Virus record (IMG/VR): IMGVR_UViG_2671180755_000025
Strand: one strand, 5' to 3'
Origin: a virus
Taxonomy: Duplodnaviria; Heunggongvirae; Uroviricota; Caudoviricetes
DNA: 12,776 bases
Positions 9,001 through 12,000 of the stretch are shown one piece after another (positions within the stretch are counted from its first letter, which is position 1; every line of letters starts with the position of its first letter). A program made the position numbers.

Positions 9001-12000
9001 GTGATATCCGTCAGGCAATCGACCGTTGCAGTAATATCTGGGCTTCACTGCCGGGCGCTGGTTATGGTCAGTTCGAGCATAAGGCTGACAGCCTGATTGC
9101 AAAATTCAAAGAAGCTGGCGGAACGGTCAGAGAGAGTGAGGTATGAGCAGAATAACCGCGATTATCTCCGCTCTGCTCATCTGCATCATCGTCTGCCTGT
9201 CATGGGCTGTTAATCATTACCGTGATAACGCCATTACCTACAAAGCCCAGCGCGACAAAAATGCCAGAGAACTGAAGCTGGCGAACGTGGCAATTACTGA
9301 CATGCAGATGCGTCAGCGTGATGTTGCTGCGCTCGATGCAAAATACACGAAGGAGTTAGCTGATGCGAAAGCTGAAAATGATGCTCTGCATGATGATGTT
9401 GCCGCTGGTCGTCGTCGGTTGCACATCAAAGCAGTCTGTCAGTCAGTGCGTGAAGCCACCACCGCCTCCGGCGTGGATAATGCAGCCTCCCCCCGACTGG
9501 CAGACACCGCTGAACGGGATTATTTCACCCTCAGAGAGAGGCTGATCACTATGCAAAAACAACTGGAAGGAACCCAGAAGTATATTAATGAGCAGTGCAG
9601 ATAGAGCTGCCCATATCGATGGGCAGCTCATGCAATTATTGTGAGCAATACACACGCGCTTCCAGCGGAGTATAAATGCCTAAAGTAATAAAACCGAGCA
9701 ATCCATTTACGAATGTTTGCTGGGTTTCTGTTTTAACAACATTTTCTGCGCCGCCACAAATTTTAGCTGCATCGACAGTTTTCTTCTGCCCAATTCCAGA
9801 GACGAAGAAATGGTGGGTGATGGTTTCCTTTGGTGTTACTGCTGCCGGTTTGTTTTGAACAGTAAACGTCTGTTGGGCACATCCTGTAATAAGCAGGGCC
9901 AGCGCAGTAGCGAGTAGCATTTTTTTCATGGTGTTATTCCCGATGCTTTTTAAAGTTCGCAGAATCGTATGTGTAGAAAATTAAACAAACCCTAAACAAT
10001 GAGTTGAAATCTCATATTGTTAATATTTATTAATGTATGTCAGATGCGAAGGATCGTCACTGTATTCCCGGATTAACTATGTCCGCAGCCCTGACAGGGA
10101 AACTCCTCTGCGGGAGTGTCCGGGAATAATTAATAACGATGCACACAGGGTTTAGCGCGTACACGTATTGCATTATGCCAACGCCCCGGTGCTGACACGG
10201 AAGAAACCGGACGTGATGATTTAGCGTGGAAAGATTTGTGTAGTGTTCTGAATGCTCTCAGTAAATAGTAATGAATTATCAAAGGCATAGTAATATCTTT
10301 TATGTTCGTGGATATTTGTAACCCATCGGAAAACTCCTGCTTTAGCAAGATTTTCCCTGTATTGCTGAAATGTGATTTCTCTTGATTTCAACCTATCATA
10401 GGACGTTTCTATAAGATGCGTATTTCTTGAGAATTTAACATTCACAACCTTTTTAAGTCCTTTTATTAACACAGTGTTATCGTTTTCTAACACAATGTGA
10501 ATATTATCTGTGGCTAGATAGTAAATATAATGTGAGACATTGTGACGTTTTAGTTCAGAATAAAACAATTCACAGTTTAAATCTTTTCGCACTTGATCGA
10601 ATATTTCTTTAAAAATGGCAACCTGAGCCATTGGTAAAACCTTCCATGTGATACGAGGGCGCGTAGTTTGCATTATCGTTTTTATCGTTTCAATCTGGTC
10701 TGACCTCTTTGTGTTTTGTTGATGATTTATGTCAAATATTAGGAATGTTTTCAATTAATAGTATTGGTTGCGTAACAAAGTGCGGTCCTGCTGGCATTCT
10801 GGAGGGAAATACAACCGACAGATGTATGTAAGGCCAACGTGCTCAAATCTTCATACAGAAAGATTTGAAGTAATATTTTAACCGCTAGATGAAGAGCAAG
10901 CGCATGGAGCGACAAAATGAATAAAGAACAATCTGCTGATGATCCCTCCGTGGATCTGATTCGTGTAAAAAATATGCTTAATAGCACCATTTCTATGAGT
11001 TACCCTGATGTTGTAATTGCATGTATAGAACATAAGGTGTCTCTGGAAGCATTCAGGGCAATTGAGGCAGCGTTGGTGAAGCACGATAATAATATGAAGG
11101 ATTATTCCCTGGTGGTTGACTGATCACCATAACTGCTAATCATTCAAACTACTTAACCTGTGACAGAGCCAACACGCAGTCTGTCACTGTCAGGAAAGTG
11201 GTAAAACTGCAACTCAATTACTGCAATGCCCTCGTAATTAAGTGAATTTACAATATCGTCCTGTTCGGAGGGAAGAACGCGGGATGTTCATTCTTCATCA
11301 CTTTTAATTGATGTATATGCTCTCTTTTCTGACGTTAGCCTCCGACGGCAGGCTTCAATGACCCAGGCTGAGAAATTTCCGGACCCTTTTTGATCAAGAG
11401 CGATGTTAATTTGTTCAANNNNNNNNNNNNNNNNNGACAGGTTACGGGGCGGCGACCTCGCGGTTTTTCACTATTTATGAAAATTTTCCGGTTTAAGGCG
11501 TTTCCGTTCTTCTTCGCCGTAACCTAATGTTTTTATTTAAAACACCCCCTGAAAAGAAAGGAAACGACAGGTGCTGAAAACGGGCTTTTTGGCCTCTGTC
11601 GTTTCCTTTCTCTGTTTTTGTCCGTGGAATGAACAATGGAAGTCAACAAAAAGCAGCTGGCTGACATTTTCGGCGCGAGTATCCGTACCATTCAGAACTG
11701 GCAGGAGCAGGGAATGCCCGTTCTGCGGGGTGGTGGCAAGGGTAATGAGGTACTTTATGACTCTGCCGCCGCCATAAAATGGTATGCCGAAAGGGATGCT
11801 GAAATTGAGAACGAAAAGCTGCGCCGGGAAGTTGAAGAACTGAGGCAGGACAGCGAGACAGATCTCCAGCCAGGGACTATTGAGTACGAACGCCATCGAC
11901 TTACGCGTGCGCAGGCCGACGCACAGGAACTGAAGAATGCCAGAGACTCAGCTGAAGTGGTGGAAACCGCATTCTGTACTTTCGTGCTGTCGCGGATCGC

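Follow-up and report, generated by a model that had tools for sequence, protein, structure and literature searches.

The moron concept in lambdoid phages is associated with Hendrix and Juhala, and its textbook cases are bor and lom. The described regions closest to the locus considered here are the right end of phage lambda (46459–47944) and the prophage DLP12 of Escherichia coli K-12, in which borD, ybcV, ybcW, ylcI and nohD follow one another. A related arrangement is found in Qin, where ynfO and ydfO lie in the company of gnsB, ynfN and cspI, and where ydfO, running antisense to the late genes, fills the same slot between the lysis genes and cos. Here, we examine this slot in a DNA stretch of 12,776 nucleotides (termed the window, at its full length) that belongs to the Caudoviricetes record IMGVR_UViG_2671180755_000025 of IMG/VR. 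A preliminary description of this DNA had presented bor, ybcV and ybcW as an uncharacterised block at a variable position and as the place to look for an undescribed accessory or anti-phage function. The block is lambda's well-known dispensable right end inside an E. coli prophage, and as such it is ordinary. Its genes, namely bor, ybcV, ybcW and the previously overlooked ylcI, are probably separate single-gene moron cassettes, gathered in an accretion zone that extends from lysis to cos in the non-essential right end of the genome.

The window matches lambda and DLP12 in genes, gene order, orientation and spacers. Window positions 9600–11418 are 98.0% identical in DNA to lambda 46423–48239, a stretch for which RefSeq annotates bor (lambdap77), lambdap78 and lambdap79, and the encoded proteins are closer still (YbcW 100% identical to lambda p79, YbcV 98.5% to the core of p78 and Bor 99%). 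The region is thus lambda's own right end and not an uncharacterised insert; nothing undescribed was found in it, as the genes are annotated in both lambda and K-12 and the existence of the element was already known. The window differs from lambda and DLP12 in representing another defective lambdoid prophage: over its whole length it is 99.97–100% identical to a prophage adjoining icd in O157:H7-type genomes, where the annotation reads bor, ybcV, ybcW, ylcI and nohD. It also differs in that its ylcI is partly masked by Ns, and in that it lacks the IS1203 element that separates bor from ybcV in complete O157 genomes. Of 5426 complete E. coli genomes, 5032 have a match to the block and 936 contain at least 80% of it. 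The coding features of the block are as follows (L and P numbers are our own handles).

9636..9929, minus strand: bor (lambdap77, borD), 97 amino acids (aa); lipoprotein with a predicted outer-membrane location and, in lambda, a known gene of serum-resistance lysogenic conversion
10221..10631, minus strand: ybcV (core of lambdap78), 136 aa, DUF1398/YdfO-like, isoelectric point (pI) 9.2, without signal peptide
10917..11123, plus strand: ybcW (lambdap79), 68 aa, acidic (pI 4.9), predicted three-helix bundle, in the orientation of the late operon
11288..11418, minus strand: 3′ two-thirds of ylcI (located by tblastn), YlcI/YnfO family, DUF3950, interrupted by a run of Ns
11419..11435, no strand: 17 Ns, standing for 252 bp (L002 14133–14384)

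Calls of open reading frames (ORFs) returned the coordinates given earlier for bor, ybcV and ybcW, and the spacer of about 285 bp between the latter two is exactly 285 bp (10632–10916). The inventory was incomplete, however: ylcI had been overlooked because the 17 Ns conceal its 5′ end. The 252 bp beneath them comprise the first third of ylcI at its 5′ side, the region upstream of the gene and cosQ-proximal DNA left of cosN. The block had also been said to run against, or to diverge from, the late operon, which is so for bor and ybcV; ybcW is oriented as the late operon is. The AT-richness noticed at first was borne out, since the GC (guanine plus cytosine) content is 0.390 in the block and 0.321 in ybcV, but reaches 0.504 in holin-endolysin-Rz and 0.526 in nu1. 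Values within the block range from 0.32 to 0.44 and those of the flanks from 0.50 to 0.53, and the block thus differs from the neighbouring phage genes. All four genes behave as real coding genes under purifying selection, with ratios of non-synonymous to synonymous substitution (dN/dS) of 0.13–0.44 (ybcV 0.13–0.35, ybcW 0.41–0.44, ylcI 0.18, bor 0.31).

The evidence for separate cassettes comes from the way in which homology with related phages starts and stops. Pairwise blastn places sharp breakpoints at window positions ~10046/10047, 10706/10707 and 11319/11320, which delimit the following modules.

To ~10046, no strand: bor module (pairwise blastn breakpoints)
10047..10706, no strand: ybcV mosaic module, ~80–84% identical to ev099, PhiR70_1 and E. 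albertii-type phages
10707..11319, no strand: ybcW mosaic module, 613 bp against 54 bp in ev099- and Qin-type phages
Beyond the 11319/11320 breakpoint: ylcI-cos module

The limits of the ybcV module were converted to window coordinates from positions 976–1635 and 976–1480 of the lambda reverse complement, and Qin has the module in common only from 10202. In ev099, Qin, PhiR70_1, L039 and L040, homology breaks off at position 362 of the lambda reverse complement and restarts at 976, and mEp460-type phages share just 413–883. Besides adding a gene, the ybcW module swaps the C-terminus of YlcI past residue 55; the 64-aa and 77-aa forms of YlcI diverge past residue ~50–55. Mapping by tblastn and in annotated records gave six natural layouts.

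Lambda, DLP12 and the window: Rz, bor (minus), ybcV (minus), ybcW (plus), ylcI (minus), cos
Phage 434: Rz, bor (minus), ylcI (minus), cosQ
ev099, PhiR70_1, E. albertii and others: ybcV (minus) directly behind ylcI (minus), without bor and without ybcW
Qin: csp, ynfN, gnsB, ydfO (minus), ynfO (minus)
mEp460 and PhiR63_1: csp, ynfN, gnsB, ybcW (plus), ylcI (minus), without ybcV
L033: gnsB, ybcV (minus), ybcW (plus), without bor

Because every combination of the four genes occurs, and does so with sharp homology breakpoints, we treat them as separate cassettes, and the idea that ybcV and ybcW, or bor, ybcV and ybcW, make up a functional unit does not hold up against the same observations. Qin illustrates the point: its YdfO is 79% identical to the YbcV of the window, but ydfO stands directly behind ynfO (the 77-aa form of YlcI), neither ybcW nor bor is present, and the morons are gnsB, ynfN and csp. 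Family sizes also differ. The phage records with YbcW number 40, those with YbcV 43 and those with YlcI 154 (including phage 434 and the Shiga toxin (Stx) phages), and IMG/VR holds 152 YbcW-like against 419 YbcV-like stretches, a ratio of ~2.8 in favour of YbcV. As in lambdoid morons, these are single genes that are present or absent between conserved, homologous flanks, as both breakpoints and layouts attest; they have a deviant base composition, are dispensable for lytic growth in lambda and, in K-12, are transcribed from the prophage. Unlike a classical antisense moron, ybcW is sense to the late operon and read by it, and is not insulated. Since the modules are separate, functional studies should treat bor, ybcV, ybcW and ylcI singly. 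The practical value is negative, in that there is no hidden system here but only lambda's familiar dispensable right end; nevertheless, YbcV and YbcW are carried by the most-studied phage and by very many E. coli genomes, and any function found for them would be of broad relevance.

Several points weigh against this interpretation. The truly distinct arrangements are few (about six), and most database copies are identical lambda sequence. The window has a strong hairpin after bor, and a consensus scan found no excess of promoter-like matches in the region (4 against 5.1 expected); promoters for the cassettes are for this reason drawn from the K-12 DLP12 literature and not from this locus. The expression data used here and below likewise concern the near-identical K-12 DLP12 copies, which belong to a different prophage from the window locus, and in K-12 ybcV and ybcW fall jointly upon deletion of pdhR, which would fit a co-regulated functional pair too. 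The AlphaFold2 (AF2) model of YbcV is poor, with a predicted local distance difference test (pLDDT) score of 47, which makes its fold search uninformative, and the fold-search matches of YbcW are generic.

One short sequence marks the seam between the ybcV and ybcW modules. GGTCAGACCAGATTGAA (window 10695–10711, with equivalents in L005, L006, L035 and L039) is invariant in all module types, and the palindrome GGTCAGACC, also invariant, lies at 10695–10703. In Qin- and ev099-type phages GGTCAGACCAGATTGAA encodes the last codons of ynfO (…VRPD-stop), and in lambda-type phages it forms the ybcW-module junction and shares bases with the PdhR box reported there. Either a hotspot of recombination or a regulatory element that has been retained may account for it. 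An ancestral pairing, if there was any, would have been ylcI-ybcV and not ybcV-ybcW, judging from the comparison of layouts: ybcV would originally have been the second gene behind ylcI/ynfO, and the pair would have been split by the ybcW module in lambda-type genomes.

The alternative that survives best is compatible with the cassettes and concerns ybcW only. YbcW (lambdap79) could be a lambda protein that is sensed by, or counteracts, a NADase (NIR/DUF4062) defence system, a tentative proposal that we hold to be on the unlikely side. The lead, an unverified one, is the bioRxiv preprint 10.64898/2026.09.04.749371, entitled ‘A widespread NADase domain links bacterial immunity with human TEP1’, in which ‘lambdap79’ occurs six times, for instance in ‘expression of lambdap79’ and in ‘lambdap79 gene’. 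The mention could refer to a control, to the site of an escape mutation or to a cloning landmark. The family of YbcW is very narrow and the protein small, acidic and helical; such small helical domains are often protein binders, but no defence gene is tied to ybcW in the window or in its relatives.

YbcW matches PHROG 657 over its full length (E=7.5e-48, profile positions 1–68 of 68), a Pfam search with it returned no family, and its AF2 model consists of three helices (pLDDT 72). When 1.84 billion representatives were searched exhaustively with HMMER, 199 clusters of homologues were collected, nearly all of them frameshifted, error-laden lambda copies; genuine variants reach only 79–88% identity, apart from one singleton, P0318, at 52–54%. 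The YbcW core (YPDVV..CI..., with 13 further letters not shown) is invariant, even in the 52–54% identical homologue. P0318 (L007 273–464), the sole truly diverged homologue, lies outside any lysis-cos context on non-lambdoid Logan contigs, which also encode, next to it, DUF7828/zinc-ribbon proteins as well as a replication protein of REP_ORF2-G2P-like type.

A second alternative takes up the adjacency of ylcI and ybcV, and regards ylcI/ynfO and ybcV/ydfO as a regulator-effector or toxin-antitoxin-like pair near cos, which ybcW has split in lambda. A small basic DNA binder of ribbon-helix-helix (RHH) type would then autoregulate, or would neutralise the DUF1398 protein encoded just downstream. 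As in type II toxin-antitoxin and RHH pairs, a small basic YlcI/YnfO with an RHH-like pattern closely precedes YbcV/YdfO on the same strand, at a distance of 54–125 bp in Qin, ev099, PhiR70_1, E. albertii and others. With a pI of 10.5, YlcI is strongly basic, and its NIRFPNQMIEQINIAL...GSGNFSAWVIEACRRRL stands, by eye, in register with the β-strand and helix motif NLRWPREVLDLVRKV of Arc. The resemblance does not extend to the profiles, since hhalign against Arc (whose sequence was verified against the Protein Data Bank, PDB) gave a probability of 1.75%, which is not significant, and hidden Markov model (HMM) searches of PDB and Pfam found neither an RHH family nor an RHH structure; the assignment of YlcI to the RHH proteins has no statistical support and stays a lead seen by eye. 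Unlike type II toxin-antitoxin loci, the window has its ylcI and ybcV separated by ybcW on the other strand, and the two adjoin only in relatives (Qin, ev099). YlcI is moreover widespread without YbcV, being far commoner in phage records; in phage 434 and the Stx phages it adjoins packaging genes, and ybcV is absent. Overexpression of ybcV from an ASKA clone gave glycogen excess, scored on entry to stationary phase; expression is evidently not lethal, because cells that had reached this phase could be scored, and the gene is not known to be toxic, unlike the second gene of such pairs. Taken together, we consider the pair improbable.

The complete ylcI gene (64 aa) at L002 14002–14196 matches Pfam DUF3950 (E=5.4e-20) and, above cut-off, NCBIfam YlcI_YnfO_N (NF041551, E=3.3e-9). 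A bolder form of the pairing idea, to which we give slightly less credence again, would make ylcI/ynfO-ybcV/ydfO an unrecognised cos-side module, composed of an RHH-like binder and a DUF1398 effector, switched by stress (here DNA damage or envelope stress) and altering the host or superinfection; the lambda copy would have been split by ybcW, with ybcW perhaps the trigger of NIR.

The proposal closest to the preliminary description, that ybcV and ybcW are a divergent two-gene accessory system for exclusion, defence or envelope modification run from their shared 285-bp spacer, is very improbable. The divergent arrangement around an AT-rich spacer invites it, as do the K-12 data: pdhR deletion lowers ybcV mRNA 10-fold and ybcW mRNA 8.9-fold (PMC7660256), overexpression of T4 MotB raises both genes more than 1000-fold, which its authors link to relief of H-NS repression, and ybcVW rise within 5 min of induction of a DNase toxin. 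Against this, each gene occurs without the other in the same slot of related phages, the ybcW module replaces other DNA as a discrete unit of 613 bp, and YbcV-like stretches outnumber YbcW-like ones ~2.8-fold in IMG/VR. Nor do ybcV and ybcW stand as a divergent pair alone, as ybcW is also a cistron of the late transcript. An anti-phage function, for which this block had been singled out as the place to look, found no convincing match among the defence models of PADLOC-DB 2.0 when the four proteins were searched; the best were REase_II for YbcV (E=9e-4, 16.7 bits) and Mem_04 for YbcW (E=0.017), and Bor and YlcI matched nothing. The REase_II match was rejected, its score being low and no PD-(D/E)xK pattern being visible by eye at invariant positions; YbcV D42 is variable in alignment A1.

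That ybcV or ybcW, or both, are non-functional, as decayed fragments or as chance ORFs in AT-rich DNA, is scarcely credible, for although ybcW lacks both a Pfam family and distant homologues and gives a dN/dS of 0.93 in its closest natural pair (from only 9 substitutions), the more diverged pairs show the constraint given above for both genes, the YbcW core persists in its most distant homologue, the YbcV paralogue folds into a solved structure and both genes are on record as transcribed in K-12.

Returning to the separate cassettes, each gene can be followed on its own. Bor matches Pfam Lambda_Bor (PF06291, E=1e-30) over its full length (profile positions 1–75 of 75) and PHROG 260 (E=1.8e-58), and the translation of its N-terminus, MKKMLLATALALLITGC, contains a signal peptide with the lipobox ITGC and Cys17. 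The earlier recognition of bor as a known lysogenic-conversion lipoprotein therefore stands. According to Barondess & Beckwith 1995, as cited in PMC2169209, Bor is the lysogenic-conversion lipoprotein of lambda that shields the host from serum complement. In the prophage state, bor of the window would be transcribed leftward from a promoter of its own, and its product exported to the outer membrane, where, as established for lambda, it would protect the host from complement.

YbcV matches Pfam DUF1398 (PF07166) at E=2e-46 over the full length of the profile (positions 1–119 of 119), and phmmer aligns its residues 1–136 with PDB 2HH8, a nuclear magnetic resonance structure of the Qin paralogue YdfO (E=1.6e-70). 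It would be a cytoplasmic basic α+β protein, transcribed against the late operon and now read from the AT-rich spacer. In studies of its relatives and copies, ydfO rose 117-fold with an ionic liquid and overexpression of YdfO has been reported to increase resistance to oxidative stress; ybcV transcripts, too, increase under stress, and ybcV is most likely a stress-responsive moron that modulates the host. A longer ORF of 177 aa, which begins at a TTG and extends to 10754, corresponds to RefSeq lambdap78. Homology with relatives stops 75 bp upstream of the 136-aa start, where the relatives have ylcI/ynfO, and the 177-aa model is for this reason an over-extended annotation artefact. The labels ‘head protein’ (PHROG 413, RefSeq) and ‘putative envelope protein’ (older records) were considered and found no support, YbcV being a cytoplasmic-looking DUF1398 protein. 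In Citrobacter murliniae, a DUF1398 gene whose product is 53% identical to YbcV adjoins an emrE-like gene (L046 5001–5405 and 5644–5982).

During lytic growth ybcW would be read in the Q-antiterminated late transcript; it is also transcribed in cryptic prophages, putatively from a promoter of its own, and its product, a predicted three-helix bundle, is most likely a protein binder rather than an enzyme. In lambda, p79 lies within the Q-dependent late transcriptional unit and is non-essential, its ‘essential’ score under CRISPR interference (CRISPRi) reflecting polarity only (Piya et al. 2023, PMC10695390), and bor and p78 under CRISPRi give an efficiency of plating of ~1 (PMC10695390). None of bor, ybcV and ybcW is needed for plaque formation, and they form no system; the view that they are accessory rather than lytic-cycle genes is upheld. 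A coevolution study found two intergenic mutations downstream of lambdap79 that reduce the infection efficiency of lambda (PMC11666707). The stretch downstream of lambdap79 (window ~11124–11435) contains ylcI and cosQ-proximal DNA.

Expression from the prophage, which had been anticipated, is documented for the K-12 copies: orthologous ybcV and ybcW are transcribed from cryptic DLP12 and respond to host regulators. The spacer between them contains a PdhR box identified by systematic evolution of ligands by exponential enrichment (SELEX; PMC7660256) and a target of FNR in chromatin immunoprecipitation (ChIP) on microarrays (ChIP-chip; PMC1802558), and exact motif matches find the sequences of both K-12 sites verbatim in the window. 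In addition, Hha binds the ybcW region and induces ybcW 17-fold, and ybcW and ylcI have been described as a convergent excludon. The remaining features of the region are listed here.

9604..9629, no strand: hairpin with a perfect 11-bp stem between the convergent Rz and bor (fold energy)
10016..10043, minus strand: sigma-70-like promoter match upstream of bor (consensus), just inside the bor-specific module
10075..10078, no strand: target site of IS1203 (IS3 family) in complete O157:H7 genomes, between bor and ybcV
10632..10916, no strand: ybcV-ybcW spacer, with the K-12 PdhR box at 10693–10709 and the FNR ChIP site at 10717–10740
11447..11458, plus strand: cosN cohesive end GGGCGGCGACCT (read directly), followed by cosB and nu1 (11636–12181)

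The fold energy of the hairpin is −21.7 kcal/mol (z-score −5.5) when the plus strand is folded and −20.9 kcal/mol (z-score −5.2) for the minus strand, and none of 200 shuffles was as stable. No clear U-tract follows it; the hairpin is probably a 3′-end or terminator element of the bor cassette. The promoter match consists of CTGACA, a 16-nt spacer and AACAAT, and agrees with the consensus at 9 of 12 positions. Window positions 1–10078 and 10075–11418 align to L002 on either side of ~1.31 kb of IS1203, annotated there at L002 11533–12746. Its absence from 10075–10078 in the window reflects either a difference between strains or collapse of the insertion sequence in assembly. GGGCGGCGACCT is the lambda cohesive end, and Nu1 beyond it matches Pfam Phage_Nu1 (E=4e-100). 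A search of the whole window against Rfam gave no match at gathering thresholds, and a repeat search found nothing relevant within the block.

The block also turns up where it would not be expected. Contigs of ~3.5 kb that carry bor-ybcV-ybcW-ylcI are present in assemblies of unrelated taxa, among them Arcanobacterium, Brevibacillus, Pedobacter, Cohnella and Kitasatospora; examples are CP136411.1 (3566 bp), NZ_JBQGPY010000002.1 (3552 bp) and most of L011–L034 and L041–L048. Such contigs match the Oxford Nanopore 3.6-kb lambda control amplicon. Some copies have been deposited as plasmids, and one was treated as a genuine plasmid (PMC11171008). The block explains, in addition, thousands of noisy ‘homologues’ in protein databases (proteins P0001–P0120). 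Scans of genome contigs and of IMG/VR returned mostly identical lambda-type copies or control-DNA contamination and added little diversity. The 3.6-kb piece of lambda pollutes public assemblies and protein databases on a large scale, which makes these families look more diverse and taxonomically wider than they are. Two further records, ‘Campylobacter phage CJLB-4’ (MW057783.1, 48361 bp), which has the block at lambda's 98% identity and at lambda-like coordinates, and protein P0005, which is assigned to the plant Dovyalis caffra and shares 99% identity with lambda YbcW, have the appearance of lambda contaminants or of mislabelled entries.

Elsewhere in the window, gene P (2294–2994) has a 1-bp deletion in a G run at ~2789 relative to the complete genome, leaving two ORFs (2294–2800 and 2692–2994), gene O is annotated as a 5′-truncated pseudogene, and no cI/cro/N immunity region was seen between xis and O in ORFs or annotation; the prophage looks defective on these grounds. 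Its early region contains an AT-rich island (3307–5464, GC 0.357) with emrE, which encodes a small multidrug resistance (SMR) efflux pump, and a gene for a 508-aa serine recombinase (ybcK).

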